From an uncultured bacterium (GTDB lineage: Bacteria > Babelota > Babeliae > Babelales > RVW-14), in contig CAVXAT010000021.1 in the NCBI GenBank assembly GCA_963759805.1, forward strand, positions 1 to 34,510: a stretch of DNA of 34,510 nucleotides, given 5' to 3'. Positions 11,258 through 33,224 of the stretch are shown here, piece by piece (position 1 is the first letter of the stretch; every line of letters starts with the position of its first letter). The notes under the pieces were generated by a model. The model saw only the letters and a program-made list of their open reading frames with translations, ran no database searches and was not told where the DNA came from. The position numbers and the translations under genes were made by a program.

Positions 11258-12295
11258 ATGAAATTTTTTCCGGCAACGAGACTTTTTAGTTTCTTTTCTA
11301 ATGACATGGCAATTGACCTGGGAACTGCCAACACCGTAATTTATGTTAAAAATCGCGGTATTGTTCTCAACCAACCATCAGTGGTAGCGGTAAAATCTAC
11401 ATCAAATGAAGTTTTGGCCGCTGGGGATAAAGCAAAATGTATGTTGGGTAAAACTCCTGAAAGTATAACGGCTAGCCGTCCAATGAAAGACGGAGTTATC
11501 GCCAATTTCGAATTAACCGAAAGCATGCTGCGTTACTTTATCAGTGAAGTTCACAACAATCGTCGTACGTTAGTAAGACCACGTATGATTATCGGAGTTC
11601 CATCAGGAATTACACAGGTTGAAAAACGCGCAGTTGAGGATTCTGCCAAACAGGCCGGCGCACGCGAAGTTTTTACAATCATGGAACCAATGGCGGCAGC
11701 AATCGGATCCGGGCTACCCGTAAATGAACCTACAGGCAACATGATAGTTGACATAGGTGGAGGAACAACTGAGGTTGCTATTATTTCGCTAAAAGATATT
11801 GTTTACTGTAAGTCGGTAAGAGTCGGCGGCGACGAAATGGATCAAGCAATTGTTCAGTATGTTAAGAAAAAATACAATCTGTTGATCGGTGAGAAAACAG
11901 CAGAAGATATTAAAATGAAAATTGGAACGGCAATGTTGACTGATGACGTTAAGCAAGTTGAAGTCAAAGGACGCGACCTTGTAACGGGAGTTCCAAAAAC
12001 CGCGCGCCTTACTTCGCTGGAAACATTCGAGGCATTAACCGAACCAATTTCTATCATTGTTGATGCGGTAAGATCTGCGCTTGAAAATACTCCACCTGAA
12101 CTTTCATCTGATCTGGTCGATCGTGGAATTATGCTTTCCGGTGGCGGATCACAACTTAAGAATCTTGACGTACTACTTTCAAAAGAAACCGGCTTACCTG
12201 TTAAAGTTGCTCAAGATCCACTCTTGTGCGTGGTGCTTGGAGCAGGACAGGTTCTGGAAGAGTTGGATAATTTTAGAGAAGCCTTGCTGAAGTGA
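11258..12295 (+). CDS. mreB: Rod shape-determining protein MreB
   Basis: AIDLGTANT, RPMKDGVIA, EPMAAAIG, VDIGGGTTE, GGDEMD, TPPEL, LSGGGS. ATG 11258 or TTG 11249. Confidence 0.98.
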   Translation: MKFFPATRLFSFFSNDMAIDLGTANTVIYVKNRGIVLNQPSVVAVKSTSNEVLAAGDKAKCMLGKTPESITASRPMKDGVIANFELTESMLRYFISEVHNNRRTLVRPRMIIGVPSGITQVEKRAVEDSAKQAGAREVFTIMEPMAAAIGSGLPVNEPTGNMIVDIGGGTTEVAIISLKDIVYCKSVRVGGDEMDQAIVQYVKKKYNLLIGEKTAEDIKMKIGTAMLTDDVKQVEVKGRDLVTGVPKTARLTSLETFEALTEPISIIVDAVRSALENTPPELSSDLVDRGIMLSGGGSQLKNLDVLLSKETGLPVKVAQDPLLCVVLGAGQVLEELDNFREALLK

Positions 12296-12298
12296 AGC

Positions 12299-12324
12299 AT
12301 GCCACACAGTAAACTGTGTGGCAT
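12299..12324. terminator. Perfect hairpin immediately after mreB
   Basis: ATGCCACACAGT-AA-ACTGTGTGGCAT; no U-tract, so terminator function is uncertain. Confidence 0.5.
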
Positions 12325-12384
12325 CAAACGTAATCTCGCCATAGCCTGTTATTAACTTACTAAGCGGATAAAATAAAATTTTCA

Positions 12385-12448
12385 AAACTTGCATTTTTAT
12401 AAATTTTTTCAATAAGCTCGTCTGTAAATAGACGGGCTTATTTTTTAA
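12385..12448 (+). promoter_or_regulatory. Element A copy 1 (promoter-like boxes overlapping a hairpin)
   Basis: TTGCAT-N18-TAAGCT; stem AATAAGCTCGTCT-GTAAAT-AGACGGGCTTATT then T-run. Confidence 0.75.
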
Positions 12449-12470
12449 ATTATTTAAGGAATGTATGTTT

Positions 12471-15400
12471 ATGAAAAAACTTATAAAAATCATTCTAATT
12501 TTTTGTGTTTTGTTTTATGGACAATCAAATGCAATGCAATCCAAAGAGTTAAAAGACAAACTCAGCATTCTCAAAACAAATCTTGGAAATTTAAAAGACC
12601 AACTAACAACATTAAATCAGAAGTTGGGAAGTTTGAAGAATAAACTAACAGGGACTGAACCAACAGGGGCCAAGCCAACAAGTGTCACAGAATTAGCCGA
12701 CAAACAAGCTTTTATACGTGATAAACAAACAAACCATTACAACAAAACAACACTCGATGATAAAGCGGTTAAACAGGGTTATGGCTATAAAACAGCCAAT
12801 TTAATGGAATTACAAAAATTATGTCAAGACAATGAAGGTAAAGGCATTTCCTGTTATGGTTATAAAATACAAGTTCCAACCATTGCCGGAATTACATCTG
12901 AAGAAATAGTACAATTTTTAGAAAAATATTGCAAAATCGACATAAATGATCTCTGGAGCAAGTTAATTCAAAAATATTTTCCAAACTTTATAACTGAACA
13001 AAAGCAAACCCTGCAAACTTTATTTACTGAACAAAAGTTTCCGGATAAGTTTCTTGATGAATTGAAAACAACAATTGAAGAAAGTGTTTCGAGTAAGATT
13101 AAGGAATTAAATTTTGCGTCACCTGAGATATTTATACAATCATTTTCGCCTGATATGCAAGTTGCACTAACAGAGTTATTTAAACAAATAGGAACCAATG
13201 ATCGCTTCATGGTACGTAGCACAGGTCGCGAGGACACAGAAGAACTTGCAAATGCAGGGGGTAATGAGAGCGTTGCCAACGTTCAAAAAGAAATCAAAGA
13301 TATTTTAAATGCAATGGCGATAGTTGTAAGTTCATATTTTAGTGCAAAATCAATGACACAACGCTTGGGAGCAAGAGATCCAAATTTACTTGATGCTCCA
13401 TTTACTCCTGTTTTATTCCAGAAAATGGTTGGTGAAACAGCGCAAGAAAAACCTTCTGCAGGAATTAACACTGAAGAACGTAAGACAATCACTCGCTGTG
13501 GTGTAATGTACACAGAAGAACCGGAGGGTAGTACTTATAATATCAATGGAAAAACATCAGGATTAACCTTAGCTCAAGTTTCATATGGACATAACGAAGG
13601 GGTTGTAAATAGTATAGTCCCTGTGGATAGTTTTTATATTGATAAAGATCTTGATATACACGCCATTATAAGGCCCAAACCATTCCGACTAGTCCCAACA
13701 ACTAAAAAAGAACAAGAAGCAGATCAATCAGCTAACAACCCTATAAAAAAATTAAAACGTGCCGACAATACTCCTGCTTTTGCAAATCTTGAAACTATTT
13801 CTAATAGTGCAGTTAAATGCCTTAAATTTATTGCTGATATGCTTGAAGCATATTATCAAAAACCAATGGATGTGGAATTTGTTATTGATGAAAAAACAAA
13901 AACAGTATACCTTGTGCAAACTAGGCCCATACCTCAGACAGAAACGGATCCTGCATCATATTTAACAATAGATTTTAACACTTACAAGAGCAATGTTATT
14001 GATGCAGAAGTTATTGTAGGTGCCGGTGGGGCATTGAAGTTTATATCAAATGATGATCAAGTTATAGATGCGAAAACGATTGGGGAAGCTCTTCGTATAT
14101 ATCAGGAACCTAGTATAATTAAAAAGGATATTTTTTGTGTAATCATTGGAGAAAATGCACCGGCAACTTCGCATGAAGCTGCAACGTTTAGGGGTGAAGG
14201 CAAGCCTGTAATTTACGTAAAAGACTTTAAAAACATTGACGCATTACTTGACCAAGAAGATTTTAGATTTGTTATAGATATTCAGCAGGGCAAAATTGTA
14301 AATTGGGCAAAAGCTGGTTTTACAGAAAAAAGTCTAGATGAAGTTTTAGCCCAGTCTTCAAGTGCTGTAAAAGGTTGGTTTTCTTATCCAACCCCAAAAC
14401 TGATTTCTCTTTACTCAGAGCGAAAGATAAATAACTGGACTGATTTGCCCATGACAGAAAATGTTTTTGGAAAACAATTTAAAAATGAAAAGCTTGACGA
14501 TATTGCAAAGCATTATAAAAAAACCAGCAAAGAATTAAGCTTTAATTTTTTTATTCAGATACTTAAAAACAAAGAGACTCAAACCCAAAGTGAGATTTCT
14601 TGGGCCTTGCGAGGTATGCTACATTATCTTGGATCCGTAACAAAAAAATTAAATGAAGCTAAATTCCAAAGTTCTGAAATTAATCTTTTAAATAATTTTA
14701 TTCTGTATTATTCCAAGAGGATTCTCGACCTTTGGGCAGCCCCAAAACCAAATGATCTCGCGTTCAGAATGAATTATCTGTTTTTAGTCAACAAATTAGA
14801 GGCACTGATTTATCAACAACCAGGAGACGAAATTATTAATGGATATTCCATCGCGCAAATTTTAAAAGCTCTTAAAGAAGAAAAACTGGTACAATCAGAC
14901 ATTAAAAAAATAGCACCTGCAGGTAAGCCGGATATTTACACAATTCAACTTTCAAGAATGGGGTTATATGCATTAACACCAGAAATAAAACAAGATTGGT
15001 TAGCGTTTGTACTGAAAGTTCAATCTTTACGAAAAGCTGATAAAGCTGATTGGGAGTCAAAGAATAAATTAAAGCTACTCGTCGTAAAGCTTACAGAGCT
15101 TGGAATTGCCGAAATGTGGCTTAATACTTCATTTATGCAAAGCAAGGGACAAGACGCACAAGCTCGAATAAATAAGTTATTTAATGAAATTTTCGATGAA
15201 AAATATCAATTAAAGCCATTTTTATTAACACTCAATATATATAAACAAAAAATCGATGTCTTAAATCTTGAAGGAGTTGATGACTCTGCCAGCTTTTTAA
15301 AGGTATGGAATGACTTTTATGAAAATGTTTTATCTTATTTTATTGCTGAGCCTTTTAAGCAAGATTTCATAGCAGCAACAACAAATATTGAAAAATTAGC

Positions 15401-17099
15401 AGCAGTACAACTTATGGAGGCTCTGGTTAACAAATTTGATGCTGCAATAAAAATCATGGAATGGAGTGATAAATATAAATTTGCAGAAACAAATGCAACC
15501 GAAGATATAAAAACTGTAATTGATAAAAATGATCCCAAAATAATCAGCACTGAAATAAAAGACAACAAAAATAGGATACTTACTTTTAGTTTCATGCTTT
15601 ATTATTATTTTGAACTTTTACACAATTGGTACAACATTTTAGAATCGACAGGATTTGCGAGTGAATTGAGTGGATATGGCAAATATCCAATAAAAGATGT
15701 TTTAAGTTGGGATATGTCCCAACTTGCGTTAACCGCCCCATGGGGTAAGCAAGATAAGCCGCAGTATAAGATGGGCGCTCTTTTGCGAAACGCATCAATG
15801 AATACAAATTCGACAGACGGCGTCTATCAGCTCGGTACTACATGGCTTTTTAATGTAAATTTTTCTAAGATAGGATCAGGCATATATTATGGAATGATAT
15901 TTCCTAAAAACGATGCTGGTTCTTTCAGCGTCAGACTTGAAGATATGTTTACCACAATTCATCAAAGTTTACTTGTAATTATTGGGAAAATAACTGATAA
16001 ATATGGCCCAGACGAGGCCAACATGCCTCTAGAATTTAAAAATGCTTGCAATGCAATAAAAGATACAATAAATAAATATACTCAACTTCGTACAAAAAAA
16101 ACCAATGCCATAACAACTTTTACAAAAAAACTAAATAATGGAAAATTCAAGGTTGAATATAGCTATGCACAAAAAGATCATAACTCAACAATTAAAATGG
16201 CGTATGAAAAAATAAAGAATAATGAAATACTCAAAATCGCATTTGTTACTTTTGGACAAGATCAATTTGCTCGATTTGAGATTCTTGATGACATTGCTGA
16301 GGTGTTAAGTGATTTATATAAACTTGGACCAATAAATATAAAACCATACGAAGATACGGAAATTAAACTTTCTTGGAAGATTAATGACAAGGTCAATTTC
16401 GAATCTATTTCTAAAAATATAGCAACTTGTATATTCTTTTTATCAGAGATCGAGAGTTTACGTTACCCGGAAGCTACAATAAGCTTTTTGTTAGATAATA
16501 CGGTATTCGATCGGGATACAAAGAAGCAAATTAAATATCCAATAATGGAGCTATTCCAAAATTCTTTCACAGACAAAATAATAGAAAAAATAATCGATTT
16601 ATCGGCTAATTCGAACAAAAATCGAATCTACTGGCCATTAAAAGAGATTTTATTGGAAAAGATAGAATATGTCGATAAAGAAACAAATAACTTAACCCAC
16701 AAGAATATATCTAAATCCAAGCAATTTAATTTTGATTCTGTAAAGGAGCCTCTAAAAACTATTTTGAAAAATATAGGAAATTTAGAAACCCCTTACGCAA
16801 AAAAATCTATGCTTTATTTGGATAGGCAAAGATTGGAGAATAAGAAATATAGTTCATCGGATAAAGATAGCGTAGCCCACAAGCATGAATATAGTTCATC
16901 ATCCGAGGAGGAATATAGCTCATCATCCGAGGAAGAATATGGTGCAGCTCCCGAGGATCTTGATAAAGCAAAAGCTGATTTACAAAGTATTGTAGACAAA
17001 ATTAAACAACTTATCGCAAAAAAGCAGCCCACAAAGATTAAGCACCCCGTAAAAACAAAACAACCCATAAAATCCAAGATTAAACAACCAAAAAAATAA
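12471..17099 (+). CDS. Large exported PEP-synthase/dikinase-like protein (ATP-grasp + phospho-His swivel + unknown C-terminal region)
   Basis: Signal peptide MKKLIKIILIFCVLFYGQSNA; GYKTANL, VRSTGRED..NAGGNES, FQKMV, DVEF, LVQTRPI (PPDK_N-like); TSHEAATFRGEGKP (PEP-utiliser mobile domain). Start 12471 or 12465. Confidence 0.8.
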   Translation: MKKLIKIILIFCVLFYGQSNAMQSKELKDKLSILKTNLGNLKDQLTTLNQKLGSLKNKLTGTEPTGAKPTSVTELADKQAFIRDKQTNHYNKTTLDDKAVKQGYGYKTANLMELQKLCQDNEGKGISCYGYKIQVPTIAGITSEEIVQFLEKYCKIDINDLWSKLIQKYFPNFITEQKQTLQTLFTEQKFPDKFLDELKTTIEESVSSKIKELNFASPEIFIQSFSPDMQVALTELFKQIGTNDRFMVRSTGREDTEELANAGGNESVANVQKEIKDILNAMAIVVSSYFSAKSMTQRLGARDPNLLDAPFTPVLFQKMVGETAQEKPSAGINTEERKTITRCGVMYTEEPEGSTYNINGKTSGLTLAQVSYGHNEGVVNSIVPVDSFYIDKDLDIHAIIRPKPFRLVPTTKKEQEADQSANNPIKKLKRADNTPAFANLETISNSAVKCLKFIADMLEAYYQKPMDVEFVIDEKTKTVYLVQTRPIPQTETDPASYLTIDFNTYKSNVIDAEVIVGAGGALKFISNDDQVIDAKTIGEALRIYQEPSIIKKDIFCVIIGENAPATSHEAATFRGEGKPVIYVKDFKNIDALLDQEDFRFVIDIQQGKIVNWAKAGFTEKSLDEVLAQSSSAVKGWFSYPTPKLISLYSERKINNWTDLPMTENVFGKQFKNEKLDDIAKHYKKTSKELSFNFFIQILKNKETQTQSEISWALRGMLHYLGSVTKKLNEAKFQSSEINLLNNFILYYSKRILDLWAAPKPNDLAFRMNYLFLVNKLEALIYQQPGDEIINGYSIAQILKALKEEKLVQSDIKKIAPAGKPDIYTIQLSRMGLYALTPEIKQDWLAFVLKVQSLRKADKADWESKNKLKLLVVKLTELGIAEMWLNTSFMQSKGQDAQARINKLFNEIFDEKYQLKPFLLTLNIYKQKIDVLNLEGVDDSASFLKVWNDFYENVLSYFIAEPFKQDFIAATTNIEKLAAVQLMEALVNKFDAAIKIMEWSDKYKFAETNATEDIKTVIDKNDPKIISTEIKDNKNRILTFSFMLYYYFELLHNWYNILESTGFASELSGYGKYPIKDVLSWDMSQLALTAPWGKQDKPQYKMGALLRNASMNTNSTDGVYQLGTTWLFNVNFSKIGSGIYYGMIFPKNDAGSFSVRLEDMFTTIHQSLLVIIGKITDKYGPDEANMPLEFKNACNAIKDTINKYTQLRTKKTNAITTFTKKLNNGKFKVEYSYAQKDHNSTIKMAYEKIKNNEILKIAFVTFGQDQFARFEILDDIAEVLSDLYKLGPINIKPYEDTEIKLSWKINDKVNFESISKNIATCIFFLSEIESLRYPEATISFLLDNTVFDRDTKKQIKYPIMELFQNSFTDKIIEKIIDLSANSNKNRIYWPLKEILLEKIEYVDKETNNLTHKNISKSKQFNFDSVKEPLKTILKNIGNLETPYAKKSMLYLDRQRLENKKYSSSDKDSVAHKHEYSSSSEEEYSSSSEEEYGAAPEDLDKAKADLQSIVDKIKQLIAKKQPTKIKHPVKTKQPIKSKIKQPKK
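16887..16940 (+). repeat. 24-bp coding tandem repeat (EYSSSSEE x2 plus partial)
   Basis: GAATATAG(T/C)TCATCATCCGAGGA(G/A) twice, then GAATAT. Confidence 0.9.
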
Positions 17100-17145
17100 T
17101 AGTATTTTCATTGATAGCTTGGACTTGTTAATCAAGCTTTCAAGG

Positions 17146-17206
17146 ACTTGCATTCTTATAACTTTTTTCAAGAAGCTCGCCCATTTACAGTCGAGCTTCT
17201 TTTTTA
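17146..17206 (+). terminator. Element A copy 2, between convergent genes; probable bidirectional terminator
   Basis: ACTTGCATTCTTATAACTTTTTT then AAGAAGCTCG-N12-CGAGCTTCTT-TTTT. Confidence 0.75.
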
Positions 17207-17207
17207 G

Positions 17208-18596
17208 TTATTTTTTGATGGCTTCAGGAATTGTGATAACACGCCCCTCTTCTGTTTCTCTACATACCGGACATGGTCTATCATGAGACCAACCTTTATT
17301 CTTAACCGCATGACCGCATTGATATAAAAAAATCTCTTCACCTACTGCAAATGGTTCCAACGTAACTGGACATTCTTCGCTTTCGACATATTTTTCCCTA
17401 CTCGTGGAAGAAAGCGTACGTAAAACAAGCACCCCAGCGTCATTCAGATATGCAATAATCGGTTTATCTGGCGCAGGCGCTGCTAATGCCTTGAATAAAC
17501 GCATAGAAGATTCTCGCGCACTCTCATCAATATCACCTATGCCTTTGGATGCAGCCGCTACTGCTTCTGAGAACCCCTCCTGCAATGGTTCTATCTTACG
17601 AGCCATCATTTTCCCAACACCAGGCGCATGTAATCGGTCTGATATGGCAGGAAAATTTGACACAATAAATTTATACTCCTCATCTGTAAATCCAAATACC
17701 GCTTTAAATCTAGCTTCGTCTCTAAACACAGTCATGCCCCTAACAAATCCATCAACAAACCAATCCCATCCCCTCATTGAATCACGCCTAAAGGCCTTAG
17801 CAATTAAATCATCAATTCTTTCTGAATCCACTGCTGGTCTCGGTGGTAGGGCTGCTGCTGCCGGTACAGGCACTGCTGCTGGTGCAGGTTCAGTTATTCT
17901 TTCCTCCATAAGCTCCTGAATTCCAGGGGCTCGTAGTCGCTCGAGAATTTGGCCGTGATTAGACCAGAAATACTCGATCTCCTCAACTGTATATCCAAAA
18001 ACTATTTTACAATTACGAACTGTCGAGAAATAATCGCTATAACCCAATCGAACAAAATTACTTTTAAATCCTTCCCAATCACTTCCATGACGAATCGAAT
18101 AAGCCCTAAAGGCTTTAGCAATTAAATCATCAATTCTTTCTAAATTCACTGCTGGTGCCAGGGGTAGTTCCTTTGGTGTCGGGAATAGTTCCGCTGCTGC
18201 TACTGCCGGTCGTGGTTGCACAAATGGTGTAGATGCTTCAGTTATCCTTACCTCCATAAGCTCCTGCATTTCAGGAGCACCTAGTCGATTTCTTATGCGT
18301 CTAAGATTAGACCTATAATACTCATATTCCTCATCTGTATATCCAAACATTATTTTAAAATCATCTCGATTCTCACCAAATCTAGCAAGGTTTTGTTTAA
18401 ATCCTTCCCAATCACTTCCATGACGAATCGAATAAGCCCTAAAGGCTTTAGCAATTAAATCATCAATTCTTTCTAAATTCACTGCTGGTGTCGGGGGTAG
18501 TGCCGCTGCGCTTACTTGCTGCAAACACGATAAACATAAAAAAATAATCAGCATAAAAGACATGCCCAAAGCACCGTATTTATTCACGCGAAGCAT
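17208..18596 (-). CDS. Exported repeat protein with a C-terminal degenerate RING/U-box-like finger
   Basis: RBS GAGAGGG before ATG 18596; hydrophobic leader; three ERIDDLIAKAFR modules; one HEAT-like unit; CPVTLEPF..CGH..W..CPVCR. Confidence 0.75.
   Translation of the reverse strand: MLRVNKYGALGMSFMLIIFLCLSCLQQVSAAALPPTPAVNLERIDDLIAKAFRAYSIRHGSDWEGFKQNLARFGENRDDFKIMFGYTDEEYEYYRSNLRRIRNRLGAPEMQELMEVRITEASTPFVQPRPAVAAAELFPTPKELPLAPAVNLERIDDLIAKAFRAYSIRHGSDWEGFKSNFVRLGYSDYFSTVRNCKIVFGYTVEEIEYFWSNHGQILERLRAPGIQELMEERITEPAPAAVPVPAAAALPPRPAVDSERIDDLIAKAFRRDSMRGWDWFVDGFVRGMTVFRDEARFKAVFGFTDEEYKFIVSNFPAISDRLHAPGVGKMMARKIEPLQEGFSEAVAAASKGIGDIDESARESSMRLFKALAAPAPDKPIIAYLNDAGVLVLRTLSSTSREKYVESEECPVTLEPFAVGEEIFLYQCGHAVKNKGWSHDRPCPVCRETEEGRVITIPEAIKK
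18063..18490 (-). repeat. Identical 95-bp intragenic direct repeats (18063-18157 and 18396-18490); diverged third copy near 17788-17840
   Basis: Direct comparison of the sequence. Confidence 0.9.
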
Positions 18597-18666
18597 GGAA
18601 AACCCTCTCATTTTAAAAATTATTCCTAACAAGCACCCCGAAAGGTCTAAAACATATATCAATTCT

Positions 18667-18728: not shown

Positions 18729-18827
18729 CCTGTTAATGCTGCCCAAGATCCACTCTTGTGCGTGGTGCTCGGAGCCGGACAGGTTCTGGAAGAGTTGGAT
18801 AATTTTAGAGAAGCTTTAATGCGATAA
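18729..18827 (+). repeat. Duplicated 3' end of mreB (99 bp, direct repeat of 12197-12295)
   Basis: 87/99 identical by manual alignment; reads PVNAAQDPLLCVVLGAGQVLEELDNFREALMR* versus PVKVAQDPLLCVVLGAGQVLEELDNFREALLK*. Confidence 0.95.
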
Positions 18828-18900
18828 AGTTTTTCCAAACTTGCATTCTTATAACTTTTTTTAATAAGCTCGGCTTTAAATAGGCGAGTTTATTTGTTTT
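18823..18900 (+). promoter_or_regulatory. Element A copy 3
   Basis: GATAAA..TCCAAACTTGCAT-N18-TAAGCT; stem AATAAGCTCG..CGAGTTTATT. Confidence 0.8.
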
Positions 18901-18928: not shown

Positions 18929-21697
18929 ATGAAAAAATTTTATGTATTTCTACTTTTTGTAGTCGCACTAACTTATCAAACAAGTTTTTACATTCAGGCC
19001 AATGAAAACAACCTTATCGGCACGCTGAGTATTTTAAAGCCGGAGTTTTATCCGACTTCTCCGCTGCACGGTGCGGTGGCCTGGCAACAAGAGTGGGTAA
19101 TGAGATTATATGATTTGGGATGGGACCGCGACAAATCTACGGGCAAGTTGATTATTGAGGATGAACAACCCCCTGCATTAATCAAGATTATTGATAGACT
19201 GTTCCACCGCCCTCCCGAAACGACTGGAATGATGGACTTTGGCCCCGTAAAGGATATCAGGGATCAGGCGGCTGCCGACGTTGCCCAAACTCTTGGGGAA
19301 ATTATTGCCGTTCTTCCCGAGCTTATCAGCAAAGAAGTTGGCAGTAAATTTAACAGATTAAAAGAACTCGCAGAACAGCTTAAAGCAGGAGCCAAGATTG
19401 AAAAGATAAAAGCTGCCGCTTCAAGTTTGTGTGAAGTAAGTGATGCAGAATTTTTTGAGAAACTAGCAGAATCAAAAAAAGCTCTTCAAAATGTAAAGAT
19501 CCCTGAAAAAGCAATTTCTGCTATCGAATTTAAAAAATTAATTAATGAGTTTTGTGAATTTAAAGAGAGCTGTGGGAAATTAGTGCGTGGTGCAGATACA
19601 GCACAACTTTTGCGTCAGGCATTTTCACAAAACCCGCAAGAAACTTTGCTGACGCTACTGGCGTTGCTTTGGGCAAGCAGTGAGTCAAACCGAGACGATC
19701 TGGCAAAATATTATCAAGCACTTGATGAGAAAATACGAGAAGTTAAAAATACATCTATATTTCTCAAAGACCAAGCACCTGGTTGGCAAGCGTGGATTGC
19801 TGATAAATTGGATCCTAAGTTAAAAGACCAAATGATAGCAGACTTGCAATTGCTTAAGGGAAAACTTGAAGATACCCCAAAGCTTTATGAGGCTCTTGTA
19901 TACCTTGTCCTAATGCCTGGTAACTATCCGAAGATTTCGGAATATAAAACGGCAACCCTTTGGCTTGATGGAACCGAACATCTCAATGTAACATTTGCAG
20001 ATTGCATGGATAGCTCAATGATGAATTTTCTGCTCATCTTGGCATACGATAAAGAAACTAAAAATTTTAATGTTGATTTTTTAAAGCAAAGACTTGAACT
20101 GTCAACATTAAATGAAAAGCTTGAGCAGTTTTTGAAAGGTGATCATCCCGCATTCATCCGCAAAATCAAAGATAAAGAAGATAGTAAAATAGATCTTACG
20201 CCACAAACAGTTGAAGAAATTGAAATTCACAATGCATGGACGGATGTTGAATCAAATATTCCCGGTGTGGCGTATAATAAGTGCCTGAGTGGGAAGTCTA
20301 TTGAACAATGTCATGGTCTGTCAAAAGGCTTTATTGTTGCTACAGAGCAAATGGATGAACCGGCAAAAAAAAGGGCTGCCTCCAGCCAAATTGGCGTGGA
20401 CACTTCCAGCTTGAAACAAGCAGGCTATGAAATAGTGGCCCCCACCGAAGGAATCTGTTTCGAACTTCAGCCATCACTAAAAAACTTTATAGTGCTTTTC
20501 AATTACTTATTGAATCTCGGATTATTTGATCCAAACAAAGTTTATGATGAAATTTTAAAGTCGGACTTTGTTAAAGTATATCTTCCAAGGTTGGCCGAAA
20601 AATTGAAAATCGAAATTAAGCCTTCTGTTCCACTCGATAAAGTTGATGAAAAAGATTATGGCGAACAAATCCTAACAAAACTTGGTTTTTATGATGAATT
20701 TCCATTCGAATTATCTACAAGTCATGGTCACGGGGAGATTATTAAGAAATACAATATATTCACAAAGGAATTGAAAAATATGCTTGATAGATTACCAATG
20801 TCTTCGACTTTGCTTACAAGTTTTCGAGGGATAAAGTTAGGGAATATGGGAGATGGTGACATCAGGACTGGCAAGTTTGTAAGCAATGGGATGTGCAATT
20901 TTTATGATCTACCGTGGTTTGATATTAGCACAAGCTTTGCAATTACCGGTATTTTAAATGGTATTGACAAGACTCAGGCCAAATGTTCGCCAGAAGTACT
21001 GAGATATTTTATGCGTTTAACAAAAATTCAACCTGACCTAGCAGTTAGACTTGAGATTTTTGAGCAAATTGTTTTAATGGTCGCAAAGGGGCAGGGATAT
21101 GCAGAGGCTATATATGCAGAGGCAATAGCCTCTGCGTCAGAATGTGTTAAGAACGCTAATTATCGCGTACGACAATCAGCAATAATATTGTTCAGGACAT
21201 TGGTTGAAAATGGGCAGGGGTACCAAGAGGCAGTGGCTGCGGCATCAAAGGGTGTCGGCGATGTTAGTGATGGGGATTCTAGTGAGAGAGTACGACAATC
21301 TGCAATAAGATTATTCGAGGCATTATTTGAAAAGAGAAAAGGATATCCAGATGCAATATCTATCGCGTTAAACGGCATAGAGGATGTGTTGTGGAACGTA
21401 CGAAGCACAGCAGAAGATTTATTCGATGCATTACTTAAAAATGGGCAGGGATATCCAGAGGTAAGAGCTGCATTGTTAAAGTGTTTGGAGAGTACTGATA
21501 AGATGGTACGAATAACGGGACTAAGGTTATTGCATAATTTATGGAAAAAAGGAGGGATTCAACAAAGTAAAATGGCCGCGATAATTAAAGGAATGCAAGA
21601 TAAAGCCGAGGCGCAAAAATTTTTCGACGATATCAATGGAAAGTTAAAAGATACAAAGATAAAAGAAGATCTCGAGCGGTATTTTAGTCAGCCGTAA
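18929..21697 (+). CDS. Exported HEAT-repeat family paralogue 1
   Basis: AAGGAG RBS before ATG 18929; signal peptide; conserved N-domain; about four 36-aa GQGY-led repeats. Confidence 0.85.
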   Translation: MKKFYVFLLFVVALTYQTSFYIQANENNLIGTLSILKPEFYPTSPLHGAVAWQQEWVMRLYDLGWDRDKSTGKLIIEDEQPPALIKIIDRLFHRPPETTGMMDFGPVKDIRDQAAADVAQTLGEIIAVLPELISKEVGSKFNRLKELAEQLKAGAKIEKIKAAASSLCEVSDAEFFEKLAESKKALQNVKIPEKAISAIEFKKLINEFCEFKESCGKLVRGADTAQLLRQAFSQNPQETLLTLLALLWASSESNRDDLAKYYQALDEKIREVKNTSIFLKDQAPGWQAWIADKLDPKLKDQMIADLQLLKGKLEDTPKLYEALVYLVLMPGNYPKISEYKTATLWLDGTEHLNVTFADCMDSSMMNFLLILAYDKETKNFNVDFLKQRLELSTLNEKLEQFLKGDHPAFIRKIKDKEDSKIDLTPQTVEEIEIHNAWTDVESNIPGVAYNKCLSGKSIEQCHGLSKGFIVATEQMDEPAKKRAASSQIGVDTSSLKQAGYEIVAPTEGICFELQPSLKNFIVLFNYLLNLGLFDPNKVYDEILKSDFVKVYLPRLAEKLKIEIKPSVPLDKVDEKDYGEQILTKLGFYDEFPFELSTSHGHGEIIKKYNIFTKELKNMLDRLPMSSTLLTSFRGIKLGNMGDGDIRTGKFVSNGMCNFYDLPWFDISTSFAITGILNGIDKTQAKCSPEVLRYFMRLTKIQPDLAVRLEIFEQIVLMVAKGQGYAEAIYAEAIASASECVKNANYRVRQSAIILFRTLVENGQGYQEAVAAASKGVGDVSDGDSSERVRQSAIRLFEALFEKRKGYPDAISIALNGIEDVLWNVRSTAEDLFDALLKNGQGYPEVRAALLKCLESTDKMVRITGLRLLHNLWKKGGIQQSKMAAIIKGMQDKAEAQKFFDDINGKLKDTKIKEDLERYFSQP

Positions 21698-25009: not shown

Positions 25010-25078
25010 AGCGCTGAATAAGTCTTGAATGGCTGTTTTTACGGGCTTGTGGTAAAATAACAAAAATAAGTATTATTT
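25010..25078 (+). promoter_or_regulatory. Element B copy 1, probable promoter of the AAA gene
   Basis: GAATAAGTCTTGAATGGCTGTTTTTACGGGCTTGTGGTAAAATAACAAA with extended -10 TG-G-TAAAAT; repeated at 29667 and 33169. Confidence 0.7.
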
Positions 25079-25100: not shown

Positions 25101-26657
25101 ATGAAATTTTTTAACACGGCTGGACCTATTAATCCAGAAAAACACTACTTTTTGAGCCACCGATTAAATGAGGAAGAAATTATATCCTTAATTGAGCAAG
25201 AAAAATATTTTATACTACATGCACCTCGTCAGTCTGGAAAAACCACAGCCATTGTCAACTTTGTTAAAAAATTAAACAATGACAGCAAATATAAAGCCTT
25301 GTATGTAAATATTGAAGCTGCACAAGCATTCAGAAGCAATGTAATTGAAAGCATGCTCGTTATTCTCGACCAACTTAATTCAGAAATTAAACATACCTTC
25401 GGAGAAGACGATTGCGGATTGGAATACTTCAAAGACGACTTAACAAATGCATCGATCTCTGGAAATGAACTCTTTAACTTTCTAGAATTTTGGGCACAAT
25501 GCTCTAAGAAACCAATTCTTCTTTTCATTGATGAGATAGATAGTCTTGTCGGTGATACGCTTATCTCAGTTCTCCGTCAAATCCGAGCTGGATATACCAA
25601 TCGGCCACGCAGATTCGCGCAATCAATATGTTTGGTTGGGGTGCGCGATGTTCGTGATTATCGAATTTGGTCGGACGAGCAGCAGGCAAGTATTTTGGGA
25701 GGCAGCGCTTTTAATATCAAGGCGGAATCTATTACACTTCCAAACTTTTCTGAACAACAAGTCAGGGATTTGTACCTTCAACACACTCAAGAAACTGGTC
25801 AAGTATTCACCAAAGAAGCAATTGAGTATGCCTTTTATTTAACACATGGCCAACCATGGCTGGTTAATGCTCTTGCCTACCAAGCTTGCTTCAAAGATGT
25901 AACCGATCGTAGCCAATCAATCACCAAAGACACAATCGAACGCGCAAAAGAAACTTTGATTCTCAGACGAGATACACATCTAGATGTTTTAATTGATCGA
26001 TTAAGTGAACCAAGAGTAAGAAAAGTTGTTGAACCAATACTTTTAGGGCAGACTCTGCCAAGTGATATCCCAAGCGATGATCTAAGTTACTGCATTGATC
26101 TAGGGATTATTTCAATTCGCAATAAGAACATTGTTATATCAAATCCAATTTATCAAGAGATATTACCCCGCGAATTAATTGCAACAACTCAGCAAACAAT
26201 AACACAACAAACTTCTTGGTATGTTAACCCTGATGGCTCAATTAATATGCATAAACTACTTGAAGCATTTGCACAATTTTTCAGAGAACACTCCGATGCA
26301 TGGCTTGAAAAATTTGCTTACAAAGAAGCCGGACCACACCTACTGCTGATGGCATTTCTGCAACGCATAATTAATGGCGGCGGCAAGATTCACCGTGAGT
26401 ACGCACTGGGACGCAAACGAATGGACCTTCTTATCGAATGGCAGAAACAAAGAATTGTTCTTGAGATTAAACTTTGGTATGGTGAAAAGGCACTGCAAGA
26501 TGGTCTTGAGCAAACAGCAGCATACATGGACACCTGCAATGCAACAGAAGGACATCTTGTAATTTTTAATCAGTCTAAAGCCAAGACATGGGAAGAGAAG
26601 ATCTATCAGCGCCAAGAAAAATTTGCGAACAAATTGATCAATATTTGGGGCATGTGA
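25101..26657 (+). CDS. AAA-type ATPase fused to a C-terminal PD-(D/E)XK nuclease-like domain
   Basis: Walker A APRQSGKTT, Walker B LLFIDEID, T.GQPWLVN; C-terminal REYALGRKRMDLLIEW..VLEIK..Q..Y. Confidence 0.88.
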   Translation: MKFFNTAGPINPEKHYFLSHRLNEEEIISLIEQEKYFILHAPRQSGKTTAIVNFVKKLNNDSKYKALYVNIEAAQAFRSNVIESMLVILDQLNSEIKHTFGEDDCGLEYFKDDLTNASISGNELFNFLEFWAQCSKKPILLFIDEIDSLVGDTLISVLRQIRAGYTNRPRRFAQSICLVGVRDVRDYRIWSDEQQASILGGSAFNIKAESITLPNFSEQQVRDLYLQHTQETGQVFTKEAIEYAFYLTHGQPWLVNALAYQACFKDVTDRSQSITKDTIERAKETLILRRDTHLDVLIDRLSEPRVRKVVEPILLGQTLPSDIPSDDLSYCIDLGIISIRNKNIVISNPIYQEILPRELIATTQQTITQQTSWYVNPDGSINMHKLLEAFAQFFREHSDAWLEKFAYKEAGPHLLLMAFLQRIINGGGKIHREYALGRKRMDLLIEWQKQRIVLEIKLWYGEKALQDGLEQTAAYMDTCNATEGHLVIFNQSKAKTWEEKIYQRQEKFANKLINIWGM

Positions 26658-26735
26658 GATAAACTTTATCCAAACTTGCATTCTTATAACTTTTTTTAAT
26701 AAGCTCGGCTTTAAATAGGCGAGTTTATTTGTTTT
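26658..26735 (+). promoter_or_regulatory. Element A copy 4
   Basis: Nearly identical to 18823-18900; starts right after the AAA stop codon. Confidence 0.8.
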
Positions 26736-26775
26736 GAAATAAAGTAATTTAAAGAAAGTAACTTAAGGAGCCCCA

Positions 26776-29461
26776 ATGAAAAAATTATATATATTTCTAC
26801 TTTTTGTAATCTCACTAACTTATCAGGCAGATTTTTACGTTCAGGCCAATGAAAATAATCTTATCGGCACACTGAATATTTTAAAGCCAGAATTTTATCC
26901 GATTTCACCACTGCACGGTGCAGTCGCCTGGCAGCAAGAGTGGGTGATGAGGTTGTATGATTTGGGATGGGACCGCGACAAATCTACGGGCAAGTTGATT
27001 ATTGAGGATGAACAACCCCCTGCATTAATCAAGATTATTGATAGACTGTTCCACCGCCCTCCCGAAACGACTGGAATGATGGACTTTGGCCCCGTAAAGG
27101 ATATCAGGGATCAGGCGGCTGCCGACGTTGCCCAAACTCTTGGGGAAATTATTGCCGTTCTTCCCGAGCTTATCAGCAAAGAAGTTGGCAGTAAATTTAA
27201 CAGATTAAAAGAACTCGCAGAACAACTTAAAGCAAGTTCCAAGACTGAAAAGATAAAATCTACCGCCTCAAGTTTGTGTGACGTAAGCGATGCAGATTTT
27301 TTTGGAAAATTGGCAGAATCAAAAAAAGCTCTTCAAAATGCAAAGATCCCTCAAAAAGCAATTTTTGCTGTCGAGTTTAAAAAATTAATTAATGAGTTTT
27401 GTGAGTTTAAGGAGAACTGTGCAAAATTGGTGCGTGGTGCAGATACAGCACAACTTTTGCGTCAAGCATTTTCACAAAACCCACAAGAAACTTTGCTAAC
27501 CCTGTTAGCACTACTCTGGTCTTGCTGTGAATCAAGTCGAGACGACTTAGCAAGCTACTATCAAGCACTTGATGAAAAAACACGGGAAGTTAGAAATATT
27601 TCAGTATTTTCCAAAGACCAGGCCCCTGGCTGGCAGCAGTGGATTGCTGATAAATTTGATAACAAGTTAAAAAACCAAATGATAGCAGACTTACACGCGT
27701 TTGAAGGAAAAATTGAGGATAATCCAAAGCTTTATGAGGCACTTACATACATTGTGCTGATTCCCGGTAACTATCCAAAGATTTCAGAATATAAAACGGC
27801 AACCCTTTGGCTTGATGGAACGGAACATCGTAATGTAACATTTGCAGACTGCATGGATAGTTCCATGATGAATTTTCTGCTCATCTTGGCGTACAACAAA
27901 GATGCAATGGCGTTTGGCACTGATTTTTTAAAACAAAAGCTTGGACTGCAAACGATAAATGAAAAACTTGAGCGATTTTTGAACAGCGACCATCCCGCAT
28001 TTATTCGCAAAAGAGAAGGCAAAGAAGACATTAAAATCAACCTGACGCCACAGACAGTTGAAGAGATTGAAATTCACAATGCATGGACAGATGTTGAATC
28101 AAACATTCCCGGTGTGGCATATAACACATGCTTGAATGGAAAAGAAATTAAATCGTGCCAATCGGGAAAAGGCTTTATTATTGCTACGCCGGACCTAAAC
28201 GATGTTTCCCTCTTTCAAAAAGCAGGATATGTAATAGTACAACCATCTGAAGGTATTTGTTTTGAATTTCAGCCTTCACTTAAAAATTTTATAGTCCTTT
28301 TCAATTACTTAATTAATCTCAACTTATTTGACCCAGCAAAAGTTTATGATGAAATTTTAAAGCCGGATTTTGTTAAAACATATCTTCCAATGTTAGCCGA
28401 AAAATTAAAAATTGAAATGGAGCCTTCTGTTTCACTCAATGATATTGATACTAAGGATTATGGGGATCAAATATTAACAAAACTTGGTTTTGATGATGAA
28501 TTTCCATTTGAGTTATCGACGAGTAGCGGGCATGGAGAAATTATTAAAACACATAGTGCCACTGCCGCGAAGTTGAAGAATATATTGCAATCCGAAAAGC
28601 TTCCAAGTCTTCGAGGTATAAAGTTGGGGGAATATGGGATATGATGACATCCAGGCCGGCAAGTTTGTAAACCATGGGGTTCTCAATTTTTATGATCTAC
28701 CATGGTTGGATATTAGCACGATTGAGGCGATTTCCAACATTTTACAAGGTATTAAAAAGGCTGAATCCCAAAGGTCACCAGATATACTGGGATATTTTAT
28801 GCATTTAGCAGAAATCCAACCCGATCCAGCAGTTACAATTAACATTTTTAGATATATTGCTTTCACGTTTGAAAAATTGGGTGAAAAACATGTAACTACT
28901 ATCTTAACTGCTGCATCGAAAGGTTTAACGCATGCTAATACTTCGGTGAGAAGCTGCACGTTGTATTTATTTGCAGCATTGGTCAACAAAGAACAGGCAT
29001 ACAAAGAAGCATTAGCTGCTGCATCTAATGGTTTAACGGATGCTAGTTTAGAAATAGTAGACGACTCATTACATTTGTTTAAAACGTTGGTCGACAAAGG
29101 ACAGGCATACCAAGAAGCATTAGCTGCTGCATCGCACTGTTTAACGGGTGCTGTTCCTTTATTACAATTCAATGTGTTGAACGTATTTATTGCATTGATC
29201 TACAAAGGGCAGGCATCTACAGAGCCATTAGAAGCCACATTAAAGTGTTTAGGGAATGCTAATAAAGAGATACAAATATCCGGGATAAAATTGTTGAAAC
29301 CTTTATGGGAAAAAGGAACAATCACAGAAAATAAAATGGCTGCAATGATTAGAAGTATACAAGATAAAGTCGGAGCACAAATGTTTTTCGATTCCATCAA
29401 ATCAGATTTTAAAGATACAAAGATAAAAGAAGATCTTGAGCAGTATTTTAGTCAGCCATGA
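26776..29461 (+). pseudogene. Exported HEAT-repeat family paralogue 3, split by a +1 frameshift (ORFs 26776-28644 and 28634-29461)
   Basis: G5 at 28626-28630 where paralogue 4 has G4 (TTG GGG AAT ATG); removing one G restores RGIKLGNM and a single ORF. Confidence 0.85.
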
Positions 29462-29513
29462 TTTTTAAAGAGAAAAAGGTTTGTACGATTTATAACCAGC
29501 AAAGAACGGAAAG

Positions 29514-29666
29514 CTACTTACTATTTTCAATCTCAAGCTTTTTGATCTTTCGATACAGCTTACTTCTGCTTATTCCAAGCATCTGGGACGCGCGAAAATA
29601 GTTATTTTAGTTTCCTGCAAAGTAATTAGCCGTTCAACTTCGTGCATGCCCATATCCATGGCAACC
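29514..29666 (-). pseudogene. Fis-type HTH fragment
   Basis: Minus strand reads VAMDMGMHEVERLITLQETK then, after a one-base shift at 29605-29608, NYFRASQMLGISRSKLYRKIKKLEIENSK*. Confidence 0.7.
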
Positions 29667-29728
29667 GAATAAGTCTTAAATGGCTGTTTTTACAGGCTTG
29701 TGGTAAAATAACAAAAATAAGTATTATT
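29667..29728 (+). promoter_or_regulatory. Element B copy 2
   Basis: Near-identical to 25016-25077. Confidence 0.75.
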
Positions 29729-30216
29729 CAGAAGCAACGTAATTGAAAGCATGCTCGTCATTCTCGACCAACTTAATTCGGAAATTAAGTATACCTTCGG
29801 AGATGCCGATTGCGGGTTGGAATACTTCAAAGATGGGTTAACAAACGTATCTATATCTGGAAATGAACTCTTTAGCTTTCTAAAATTTTGGTCAAAATGC
29901 TCTAAAAAACCGATTCTTCTTTTTATTGATGAGATAGATAGCCTTGTCGGAGATTCGCTTATCTTAATCCTCCGCCAAATTCGTACAGGATATACCGATC
30001 GACCAAGCAGATTCCCACAATCAATATGTTTGGTGGGCGAACGCAATATACGGGATGCTGATATCTGGTCAAAAGACTGCTTAGAGTTGCTAAGACACGG
30101 AGGAAGCCCCTTTAAAATATGGTTTTATATAAGGATATAAAAACCGCTGGAAAGAGAAGACCTACCAGCGCCAAGAGAAATTTGCGAACAAATTGATCAA
30201 TATTTGGGGCATGTAA
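29726..30216 (+). pseudogene. Decayed paralogue of the AAA/nuclease gene (internal fragment plus last ~70 bp)
   Basis: 29726-~30117 matches from 25328 onward (Walker B kept, start and Walker A lost); 30148-30216 matches the 3' end ...KFANKLINIWGM*. Confidence 0.9.
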
Positions 30217-30296
30217 GATAAACTTTTTCCAAACCTTGAATTTATATAACTTTTTTCAATAAGCTCGGCTGTAAATAGGCGAGCTTATTTGTTTTT
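30217..30296 (+). promoter_or_regulatory. Element A copy 5
   Basis: GATAAACTTTTTCCAAAC, TTGAAT-N18-TAAGCT, stem AATAAGCTCG..CGAGCTTATT. Confidence 0.8.
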
Positions 30297-30323
30297 AAAG
30301 AAAGTAATTTAAGGAGCCTTTCG

Positions 30324-33137
30324 ATGAAAAAATTTTATGTATTTCTACTTTTTGTAGTCGCACTAACTTATCAAACAAGTTTTTACATTCAGGCCAATGA
30401 AAACAACCTTATCGGCACATTGAGTATTTTAAAGCCAGAGTTTTATCCAATTTCACCACTGCACGGTGCGGTGGCATGGCAACAAGAGTGGGTAATGAGA
30501 TTGTATGATTTGGGATGGGATCGCGACAAATCTACAGGCAAGTTGATTATTGCTGATGAGCAACCGCCTGCCTTAATCAGGATTATTGATAGATTATTCC
30601 ACCGACCTCCCGGAACATCTGGAATGATGAATTTTAGCCCAACAAAAGATATCAGAGATCAGGCGTCTGTCGATGTTGCTCAATCTCTTGGAAAAATTAT
30701 TGCACTTCTTCCAGAGTTTGGCAGCAAAGAAGTTGGCAGTAAATCTAACAGATTAAAAGAACTTGCAGAACAACTTAAAGCAAGTTCCAAGATTGAAAAG
30801 ATAAAATCTACCGCCTCAAGTTTGTGTAACGTAAGCGATGCAGATTTTTTTGGAAAATTGGCAGAATCAAAAAAAGCTCTTCAAAATGTAAAGATCCCTG
30901 AAAAAGCAGTTTCTGCTGCCGAATTTAAAAAATTAATTAATGAGTTTTGTGAGTTTAAGGAGAACTGTGCAAAATTGGTGCGTGGCGCAGATACGGCACA
31001 ACTTTTGCGTCAAGCATTTTCACAAAACCCACAAGAAACTTTGCTAATGCTGCTTGCCTTAATCTGGTCTTGTTGCGAATCAAGCCGAGACGACTTGGCA
31101 AACTACTATCAAGCACTCGATGAAAAAATACGAGAAGTTAGAAATATGTCGATATTTTCCAAAGACCAGGAACCTGGTTGGCAAGCATGGGCTGCTGATA
31201 AATTTGTTTCAGAAACCGAAGGTAAAATGAAAGCAGACTTGCAGGCATTTGAAGGGAAATTTGAGAATAGCCCGCAGCTTTATGAGGCGCTTACATACAT
31301 TGTGCTGATGCCAGGTAAATACCCAAAGCTTTCGGAATATAAAACAGCAACACTTTGGTTTGATGGGATGGAACATCGTAATGTAACATTTGCAGACTGC
31401 ATGGATAGCTCCATGATGAATTTTCTTCTTATCTTGGCATACGACAAAGACGCAAGGGCGTTTGGTCTTGAATTTTTAAAATCAAAACTCGAATTGCAAA
31501 AGTTAAATGAAAAACTTGAGCGATTTTTGAACAGCGACCATCCCGCATTTATTCGCAAAATAGAAGGCAAAGAAGACAGTAAAATCAACCTGACGCCACA
31601 GACAGTTGAAGAGATTGAAATTCACAATGCATGGACAGATGTTGAATCGAACATTCCCGGTGTGGCCTATAACAAATGCTTGAGGAATAATACGATTGAA
31701 TCGTGTCGAGGCGAATCAAGGGGATTTATTGTTGCTGTACCGGAACTTAAGGATGCTCCCAAATTTCAAAAAGCAGGTTACGTGATAGTGGCACCCGCCG
31801 AAGGAATCTGTTTCGAGCTCCAGCCCTCACTAAAAAACTTTATAGTGCTTCTCAATTACTTACTGAATCTTGGATTATTTAATCCGGTCAATGTTTATGA
31901 TGAACTTTTAAAACCGGATTTTGTTAAAACATATCTTCCAAAGTTGGCCGAAAAATTAAATTTAAAAATTGAGCCTTCTATTTCATTGGATGAGATTGAT
32001 AGTAAGGATTATGGCGAACAAATGCTAACAAAACTTGGGTTTGATGATGAATTTCCATTTGATTTATCGACAAGCTATGGACATGGGGAAATTATTTCAA
32101 ACTATCGAGCCGCTGTAAAGGAACTGAAAAATGCGTTTGATAGGTTACCAAACACCCCAGATCTGCTTCCAAGTGCCCGCGGTATAAAATTGGGGAATAT
32201 GGATAGAAAAGATATCGTACGGAGTGCATTTACATCTAACAAAGTTCTCAATTTTTATGATTTTCCATGGTTTGATGTTAGCACAAGCCATACAATTATT
32301 AATATTTTGCGTGGCATTAAAATCGTTCATGCTCAATGTTCACCGGAGATACAGGGATATTTTATGCGTTTAGCAGAAATTCAAGCAGATCTAACGATTA
32401 GAATTAATCTTTTTGAATATGTAGTCTTATTTTTAGAAAATTTGAGTGAAAAATACGTAAATACTATATCAACTACTGCATCAATTAGCATAAATAATAA
32501 TAGAGAGGATATACAAGACTCTGCAATGAGAATATTCAAAGTTTTGTTTGAAAGGGGTCAGGGATATCCAGCGGCAATAGTTGCTGCATCCAAAGGCATC
32601 ACGAATGCGGATGTTGGTGTGCGATGGATTTCAATACAGTTGTTTGAAGAATTGGTTAAAAACGGCCATGGGTATACAGAAGCAATAGCCGGTGCATCAA
32701 AAGCAGGAGGGGATGATGATCCTAACATACGATGGTTTTCGACCCAGGTGTTTAAAGAATTGGTCAAAAACGGCAAGGGATACCCAGAGGCAATAGCAGC
32801 TGCATCCAAAGGTGCAAAGGATACCACTGATTGTAATGTACAAATATCCGCGATAGGTTTGTTTGCTGAACTGGTCAAAAATGGGCAGGGGTATACAGAA
32901 GCCATATCAACTGCATCAGAATGTGTGAAGGCCACTGAGGATGACGTACGACGATCGGCGATAAATTTATTTAAGGCATTGGTTGAGAAGAGAGAAATCC
33001 CAGAAGGTAAAATGTCCGAAACAATCAAAAGAATGCAAGATAAAGCCGAATCTCGAAAATTTTTCGACTCTATCAAGGGAAAATTAAAGGATGCAAAGAT
33101 CAAGGCAGATCTCGAGCAGTGTTTTGGGCAGCAGTAA
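30324..33137 (+). CDS. Exported HEAT-repeat family paralogue 4
   Basis: Same architecture; four GxGY-led repeats plus a leading unit. Confidence 0.87.
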   Translation: MKKFYVFLLFVVALTYQTSFYIQANENNLIGTLSILKPEFYPISPLHGAVAWQQEWVMRLYDLGWDRDKSTGKLIIADEQPPALIRIIDRLFHRPPGTSGMMNFSPTKDIRDQASVDVAQSLGKIIALLPEFGSKEVGSKSNRLKELAEQLKASSKIEKIKSTASSLCNVSDADFFGKLAESKKALQNVKIPEKAVSAAEFKKLINEFCEFKENCAKLVRGADTAQLLRQAFSQNPQETLLMLLALIWSCCESSRDDLANYYQALDEKIREVRNMSIFSKDQEPGWQAWAADKFVSETEGKMKADLQAFEGKFENSPQLYEALTYIVLMPGKYPKLSEYKTATLWFDGMEHRNVTFADCMDSSMMNFLLILAYDKDARAFGLEFLKSKLELQKLNEKLERFLNSDHPAFIRKIEGKEDSKINLTPQTVEEIEIHNAWTDVESNIPGVAYNKCLRNNTIESCRGESRGFIVAVPELKDAPKFQKAGYVIVAPAEGICFELQPSLKNFIVLLNYLLNLGLFNPVNVYDELLKPDFVKTYLPKLAEKLNLKIEPSISLDEIDSKDYGEQMLTKLGFDDEFPFDLSTSYGHGEIISNYRAAVKELKNAFDRLPNTPDLLPSARGIKLGNMDRKDIVRSAFTSNKVLNFYDFPWFDVSTSHTIINILRGIKIVHAQCSPEIQGYFMRLAEIQADLTIRINLFEYVVLFLENLSEKYVNTISTTASISINNNREDIQDSAMRIFKVLFERGQGYPAAIVAASKGITNADVGVRWISIQLFEELVKNGHGYTEAIAGASKAGGDDDPNIRWFSTQVFKELVKNGKGYPEAIAAASKGAKDTTDCNVQISAIGLFAELVKNGQGYTEAISTASECVKATEDDVRRSAINLFKALVEKREIPEGKMSETIKRMQDKAESRKFFDSIKGKLKDAKIKADLEQCFGQQ

Positions 33138-33168
33138 TTTTTACCCAATCGTGGATAATTGTACCCAT

Positions 33169-33224
33169 AGCGCTGAATAAAGTCTCGAATGGCTGTTTTT
33201 ACAGGCTTGTGGTAAAATAACAAA
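33169..33224 (+). promoter_or_regulatory. Element B copy 3 (orphan, no AAA gene follows)
   Basis: AGCGCTGAATAAAGTCTCGAATGGCTGTTTTTACAGGCTTGTGGTAAAATAACAAA. Confidence 0.75.

Follow-up and report, generated by a model that had tools for sequence, protein, structure and literature searches.

We analysed a stretch of 34,510 nucleotides (contig CAVXAT010000021.1, here C21; the whole stretch at its full length is called the window) from a member of the Babeliales (Dependentiae/TM6), in which the gene mreB is followed by an array of about 22 kb consisting mostly of predicted secreted-protein genes. The genome, a metagenome-type assembly of 1.5 Mb in 21 contigs (completeness 88.7%, contamination estimate 0.79%), belongs to a phylum for which, to our knowledge, no genetics exists. 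The accessible part of PMC4776705 describes Dependentiae as widespread, as known or inferred parasites of protists and as carrying many eukaryote-like repeat proteins. Related genomes are numbered with G and fetched loci with L; G000 is the genome under study, and its congeners include G002 and G003. Two short elements, A and B, recur between the genes of the array, which is laid out as follows.

11249..12295, + strand: mreB, intact (Pfam MreB_Mbl, E 2e-146); ends in EALLK-stop, congeners in EALMR-stop
12197..12295, + strand: left mreB tail, likely an incoming copy that now completes mreB
12296..12375, + strand: spacer with a perfect 26-bp hairpin (12299-12324); unique, with no copy elsewhere in the genome or in three congeners
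12379..12446, + strand: A1, terminator-like hairpin plus predicted promoter TTGCAT-18-TAAGCT
12465..17099, + strand: dikinase-like gene, 1544 aa, predicted secreted; PPDK_N ATP-grasp domain, E 2e-30
17138..17205, + strand: A2, diverged (78%), lying where the dikinase and RING genes converge
17208..18611, - strand: RING gene, predicted secreted; three internal repeats, one HEAT-like repeat and a weak C-terminal RING finger
18729..18827, + strand: right mreB tail, EALMR-stop then directly A, as in congeners; likely the displaced original end
18831..18898, + strand: A3, matched by the model of A
18929..21697, + strand: HEAT1, predicted secreted; N-terminal domain with Cys/His, C-terminal HEAT repeats
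21729..24989, + strand: HEAT2, with no A in front
25016..25077, + strand: B1, the AAA upstream region; predicted extended -10 promoter TG-G-TAAAAT
25101..26657, + strand: AAA ATPase with a weak PD-(D/E)XK domain; N-terminus not signal-like
26666..26733, + strand: A4, joined to the AAA stop at a GATAAA derived from the last codon of mreB
26776..29461, + strand: HEAT3, with a frameshift near 28,630 (G run) that gives open reading frames (ORFs) of 622 and 275 aa
29514..29647, - strand: Fis fragment, a decayed 3' part (HTH_8, E 2.7e-6); the Fis gene of relatives converges on mreB
29667..30216, + strand: B2 and AAA remnant, in blocks of 62, 331 and 78 bp of the intact AAA copy
30226..30293, + strand: A5, matched by the model of A
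30324..33137, + strand: HEAT4, a HEAT paralog
33175..33224, + strand: B3, cut off, then a genome-wide short hairpin repeat at 33236-33274
33330..34510, + strand: pieces of two multi-copy insertion sequences (IS), a DDE_Tnp_1_3 fragment and then a second element, to the contig end

Coordinates, matches and repeat searches confirmed this order of genes and repeats, which a preliminary description of the locus had set out. That description had also given every cargo gene except the AAA gene a signal peptide. Scored as the maximal 10-residue Kyte-Doolittle mean, the measure from which secretion is predicted here, N-terminal hydrophobicity agrees, reaching 2.8-3.2 in the six cargo genes as against 0.6 in the AAA gene and 1.2 in mreB. 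From these hydrophobic N-termini and the eukaryote-type repeats, the cargo is predicted to consist of secreted host-interaction proteins. Upstream in the window lie a GspC-like type II secretion gene (2428-3579) and a lone GspD N0-like fragment (4889-5380), a possible export route for the cargo. Two families of short intergenic hairpin repeats occur genome-wide and are seen in the window at 6742-6816, 6889-6922 and 33236-33274.

The dikinase and RING genes form a block of 6532 bp flanked by 99-bp mreB tails, of which 89 bp align at 93% (right copy 18729-18817) with identical runs of 8, 26 and 38 bp. Over the whole tail, silent divergence (pS) is 0.28 and replacement divergence (pN) 0.06 (p 0.03), and the core holds 3 silent and no replacement changes (p 0.012); tails of congeners differ at pS 0.44-0.53. 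Such mostly silent divergence indicates that both tails were likely once working mreB ends in related lineages, and because a decaying free copy is expected to show mostly replacements, local duplication is disfavoured. The spacer hairpin sits between the end of the intact mreB and A1; the right tail adjoins A directly, a junction matched in G002, G003 and two metagenome loci (L021 and L022). In these four, which represent other species or strains of the genus rather than the same species, the empty site is one tail followed directly by A. As judged from the tails, a related lineage is the likely source of the 6.5 kb block, which would have brought along a copy of the last 33 codons of mreB. 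No other event is anchored at this tail. Inspection by eye led us to drop a dif-like (Xer) site at the junction.

A hidden Markov model built from the six genomic copies of A recovered five in the window and one on contig C9 (E<1e-17) and, below E 0.2, nothing beyond these and their own reverse strands. B, the region upstream of the AAA gene, has three copies, all in the window; neither element is genome-wide, and a reading of A as a genome-wide repeat was rejected with the count of six. In G002, G003, L021 and L022, A starts at the mreB stop, and three of these four sites have no cargo behind it. The junctions at which A had been said to start, at a GATAAA beside mreB and AAA ends, are present, and the GATAAA is simply the Arg codon and stop of mreB. 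A is the ancestral mreB 3' hairpin of the genus, standing in cargo-free sites too. This, and the displaced tails of mutL, dnaK and other genes described below, do not support the earlier idea of a dedicated cassette anchor.

The stem of A is paired in 99% of cells over nine copies, with one pair seen as T-A, A-T and G-C and a T run behind it. The TTGCAT-18-TAAGCT pair overlaps its 5' arm, 47-71 bases before start codons. Spacers of 16, 17 and 18 are enriched among 618 upstream regions of this genome (104, 134 and 109 sense versus 66, 62 and 81 antisense). The TAAGCT box is kept in A6 (the C9 copy) and, among the aligned copies, in the five with a sense gene behind them; it is absent in the three cargo-free sites and in A2, where the -10 box is altered to GAAGCT and the paired base is altered too. 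A has the shape of a terminator, with a likely second role as promoter for the next gene. In congener G003 the corresponding position aligns at 78% with A1, the ribosome site and the first codons. Rfam gave no match in 12000-34510, A included, and a sigma-54 reading of A was likewise dropped by eye.

The HEAT/AAA part of the array arose by tandem duplication and is mosaic. One continuous 2.3 kb repeat takes in the AAA tail, A and HEAT (26589-28917 versus 30148-32482); because it spans both AAA-A junctions, these represent a single event that was copied, not two separate joinings. Identical tracts of 203, 213 and 95 bp link the four head-to-tail HEAT paralogs on a background of 70-90%, and the partner shifts along the gene. 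These tracts fit gene conversion and could partly reflect assembly. The proposal that cargo is added by recombination at a gene tail plus A most likely holds for the one dikinase and RING block at the mreB tail and gives way to tandem duplication for the HEAT/AAA part. A fifth HEAT gene, flanked by recJ and a thioredoxin reductase gene, lies on C9 (49557-52490, L226); it has its own A and 59 bp of the AAA gene and represents a unit that left the array. C7 ends in a sixth copy, which is broken. At many other places, too, this genome has secreted genes in tandem clusters.

Two cargo families without a name merit study: the secreted dikinase-like protein and the HEAT-repeat proteins with their Cys/His domain. 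The HEAT N-terminal domain (18929-20830 and paralogs; proteins P0003-P0152) has 162 relatives at E<0.001, fused to HEAT or ankyrin repeats, and carries the motif F.DCM ... T..HGE with an invariant Cys and a near-invariant His, suggestive of a candidate secreted cysteine hydrolase. Pfam, atlas and PDB profile searches gave no match to this domain, whose motifs may resemble those of microsporidian and giant-virus gene families. Long matches to the dikinase-like family occur in about 10 of 30 relatives, often in several copies; its T-S-H-E-A motif is presumably the phospho-histidine site. The first 57 residues are 42% like an unrelated gene behind mreB in G003, and the ribosome-site regions are alike too, which suggests an older swap of the gene body behind a kept leader at this position. 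Similar leaders stand on other genes of the genus, so likeness of leaders is no proof of a body swap. For the RING gene, the best Pfam match to RING has E 0.005, under the cut-off, and no relative was found in 30 related genomes.

The content downstream of mreB, whose comparison among relatives had been proposed, is not fixed. A Fis gene converges on mreB within the fetched stretch in 16 of 25 family-level loci (L021 and G002 being near kin); the gap between the two is below 170 bp in 7 of the 16, which are empty, and in 9 it is filled by differing genes over 0.8-10.8 kb, compared with 22 kb or more in this genome. Fis is matched in the assembly by the fragment at 29.5 kb alone, which represents the 3' part of the right-hand neighbour. 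The gene that follows Fis in relatives encodes 325 aa with no family match (we assume it to be holA-like); in this genome it is cut at the end of contig C4, so that the array probably continues through the assembly gap. In another relative, G007, a 213-bp direct repeat at 93% (L006:4544-4756 and 7960-8172) surrounds a 3.4 kb block right behind mreB.

Displaced gene tails are not special to mreB. The mreB tail query matched 241 of 261 phylum genomes, four of them twice; in two of these (G220 and G221) the matches are full-length paralogs, which leaves a second tail in G000 and G049. In one genus of the phylum there are two full-length MreB proteins, the second a divergent one at 29-34% identity (L149-L158; G221 C65, G220 C17, G222 C9, G223 C2). 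G049, of another family, shows the same build of mreB, cargo and a 102-bp tail, the latter with 8 silent codon changes and 0 replacements; its cargo comprises a SET-domain protein, a toxin-antitoxin-like pair and a small secreted protein. Within its mreB-rsmA interval (L023:1912-7400) lie the displaced mreB tail and a displaced SET-gene tail around the toxin-antitoxin-like pair. No new mreB tail appeared when 26 further genomes were re-searched at E 10. When the DNA behind mreB was searched in 63 usable loci of relatives, one had a tail, a case already known (L002 and L005 lacked the gene end and L022 was mis-oriented), and 78 of 80 further loci, most from outside the phylum, held none.

The gene mutL served as a control: 3 of 253 genomes have a displaced mutL tail, starting about 113, 77 and 66 bp ahead of the stop codon. 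Other second matches to mutL stand at contig ends (G158 and G160) or belong to a duplicated region (G185). The mutL tails surround toxin-antitoxin-like or small secreted genes, the one in G049 (L191:6502-7351) carrying 7 silent changes and 3 replacements; further mutL-tail loci are L214 and L216. A displaced dnaK tail was seen once (G015, L157:5244-6864); it is 81 bp long and has 7 silent changes and no replacement. The genes inserted beside these dnaK and mutL tails are of AAA, toxin-antitoxin-like or small secreted type, and the dnaK junction abuts a REP-like start. G000 itself also holds decayed tails of cytidylyltransferase, Mur ligase and CDP-alcohol transferase genes. In a survey of orphan copies over 2809 ORFs (1051 of its own and 1758 from 2.45 Mb of relatives' loci, partly overlapping), 23 rows were tails, 11 heads and 6 middles. 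In aggregate, displaced tails are likely a general recombination scar and no dedicated cassette system.

The preliminary description had seen no recombinase in the window, and this extends to relatives: a family search found no integrase or recombinase in the window, and no serine or tyrosine recombinase matched in any fetched post-mreB locus. Elsewhere in the genome the resolvase family gave 7 matches, among them several large serine recombinases of full length, beside 3 IS110, 5 Y1 and, on another contig, one tyrosine recombinase; the window holds no IntI or attI. Members of a large serine recombinase family stand at C1:53919-64678, C3:19060-21230, C9:11162-12547 and C10:49828-50671, several beside toxin-antitoxin-like pairs. 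Orphan mreB tails were sought in mobile DNA. The phage collection had none, nor did viral contigs, where two returned loci were out-of-frame chance matches; plasmids had none either, the annotated matches, which were not opened singly, being whole mreB genes. Two short proteins offered as orphan tails were rejected as mreB fragments with normal upstream sequence.

These observations make it fairly probable, in our judgement, that the interval grew by one additive 6.5 kb insertion together with tandem duplications of a HEAT gene and its neighbours. Donor DNA from a close relative would have formed a circle, or one of its ends would have been joined illegitimately; a single crossover of RecA type, in the tail's identical run of 26 or 38 bp, would then have let it in, leaving mreB whole and pushing the old tail downstream; RecA is intact in this genome. 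Element A would end mreB transcription and start the next gene through the -35/-10 pair overlapping its 5' arm, so that whatever lands behind A would be expressed. Tandem duplication of the predicted secreted HEAT gene with its neighbours would have followed, and no dedicated recombinase or cassette site would be needed. Gene tails would be over-represented because only such insertions leave an essential gene intact.

A number of observations weigh against this account. No donor lineage, no circle and no same-strain empty site was seen, and the ComEC-like match, a candidate for DNA uptake, carries internal stops. At its 5' edge the right tail has two replacements (K-N and V-A) to residues found in 0 of 55 relative tails, changes that fit decay or chance microhomology at the junction. 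For the promoter role, the three cargo-free A sites are close kin, so that few independent events stand behind the correlation, and a consensus scanner called A1 alone a terminator and no A a promoter. The rows of the orphan-copy survey include IS pieces, overlapping loci and paralogs cut by locus ends. Finally, the left ends of the mreB tails in G000 and G049 lie no more than 3 bp apart, at L-P-V codons close to the middle of an imperfect dyad, a coincidence to which we assign, by our own estimate, a chance of 5-10% for two tails of about 50-120 bp; and G049 repeats a locus-specific terminator between its cargo genes (up to six copies, four by search and two by eye), as G000 does with A, a pattern not predicted if chance alone were at work.

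The last two points are also what speaks for mreB as a true attachment site, the shared left boundary in two families being the best support. A recombinase acting in trans would integrate integrase-free circles, each with a replacement 3' end, at the T-G-L-P-V dyad, and A would serve as a reusable expression platform. The codons do form ACNGG-N4-CCNGT, perfect in G049 and G002, and resolvase-family, tyrosine, IS110 and Y1 enzymes are encoded in the genome. Yet the dyad follows automatically from the amino-acid sequence, second tails occur in only 2 of 241 genomes, recombinases are missing near mreB in every fetched locus as are orphan tails in the phage, plasmid and viral collections, and in each case both tails are closest to the host's own lineage rather than to each other. 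The variable left ends of the mutL tails weaken a fixed site further, and we regard this as unlikely. Quite unlikely, too, is its fullest form, a plug-and-play host-interaction platform in which a trans-acting recombinase uses the mreB 3' end and A switches on the secreted cargo. A history within a single lineage needs no additive transfer: the mreB tail, A and first cargo gene would have been duplicated in tandem, the cargo body replaced or deleted and the mreB end replaced allelically. Tandem duplications that catch a neighbour's tail are indeed common (a cytidylyltransferase tail between ankyrin paralogs, a CDP-alcohol transferase tail, a holB-type tail in G066 and the AAA-A-HEAT unit), and the sharing of A1, ribosome site and leader with an unrelated G003 gene points to a retained leader with an exchanged body. 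The dikinase and HEAT1 genes, which follow the two tails, are unrelated, however, and a free copy with 3-6 silent differences should have gained more replacements, of which the core has none, so that this history seems doubtful to us. We consider it very improbable that the array is in part an assembly chimera of two co-occurring strains (dikinase and RING versus HEAT array) or of collapsed paralogs: the incomplete, metagenome-type assembly of 21 contigs, the identical tracts between paralogs and the frameshift in a G run would suit it, but the right junction fuses unique sequence to mid-mreB, which merging of alleles would not create, the contamination estimate is low and the same footprint recurs in independent genomes.

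Read as an insertion followed by duplication, the locus shows likely gain and multiplication of secreted genes without integrases, by additive insertion at housekeeping-gene ends and then tandem amplification and conversion. Displaced tails with silent-only differences would offer a cheap, phylum-wide marker of genes recently gained from relatives. The literature within reach, which left out most subscription papers, yielded nothing on insertion at mreB or on arrays of this type in Dependentiae; PMC6379469 names mreB in a reference only.

Set beside known systems, the locus shares features with several. It resembles integron arrays in its stacked genes with a repeated hairpin between them. Those arrays depend on IntI, which is missing here, and A is terminator-shaped with a T tail, stands before as well as after genes, has 6 copies and is the host gene's own 3' element; judged by shape and not by an attC model, the plain, T-tailed stem seen at cargo-free mreB stops is unlike an attC after each cassette. 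Islands of the kind collected by Islander reportedly regenerate the 3' end of their target, and e14 and phage 21 at icd are an example. Additive flexible genomic islands, in the portion of PMC4898812 available, keep a fixed chromosomal spot with variable cassette content, at tRNA or tmRNA genes or fixed att sites, and have integrases. The array is like both in its fixed spot and in the downstream repeat of part of the target gene, but it has no linked integrase, and its target codes for a protein. Tandem paralog clusters of host- or conflict-related genes are a further counterpart, and type VII secretion system immunity arrays are said to be of this kind. The S. aureus lpl genes form a tandem paralog cluster diversified by recombination, as far as the available text of PMC2568036 goes. 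The HEAT part is alike in its head-to-tail mosaic paralogs, with gene end, intergenic region and gene start moving together, and differs in that its units have also captured unrelated genes, namely AAA and the tails of Fis and mreB.

Closest to the 6.5 kb block are two kinds of scar. In E. coli conjugation with an engineered substrate, re-circularised incoming DNA entered by a single crossover at about 4e-9 and duplicated 109-950 bp of a gene end (PMC3240628, accessible part). The block shares with it a duplicated gene end around foreign DNA without an integrase, over 99 bp; classical homology-facilitated illegitimate recombination leaves a deletion, in contrast to the duplication found here. 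Insertion with long target duplication, described for restriction genes in the available text of PMC2853133, involves inserts below 20 kb, direct repeats above 30 bp and no mobile-element gene; the repeats span the stop codon so that the target gene stays whole, and relatives have the empty site. The 6532-bp insert, 99-bp repeats, absence of a mobility gene and empty site in relatives all agree with this class. Restriction-modification cargo is replaced by predicted secreted dikinase-like and RING-like proteins, and the repeats differ mostly silently, which points to two alleles rather than a copied target. As far as the accessible literature goes, the mechanism of this class is unproven, and diverged two-allele cases such as this favour entry of donor DNA over copying of the target. 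Overall, the observation behind the preliminary description is confirmed and its interpretation partly supported: the locus is mostly a known kind of recombination scar joined to tandem amplification.

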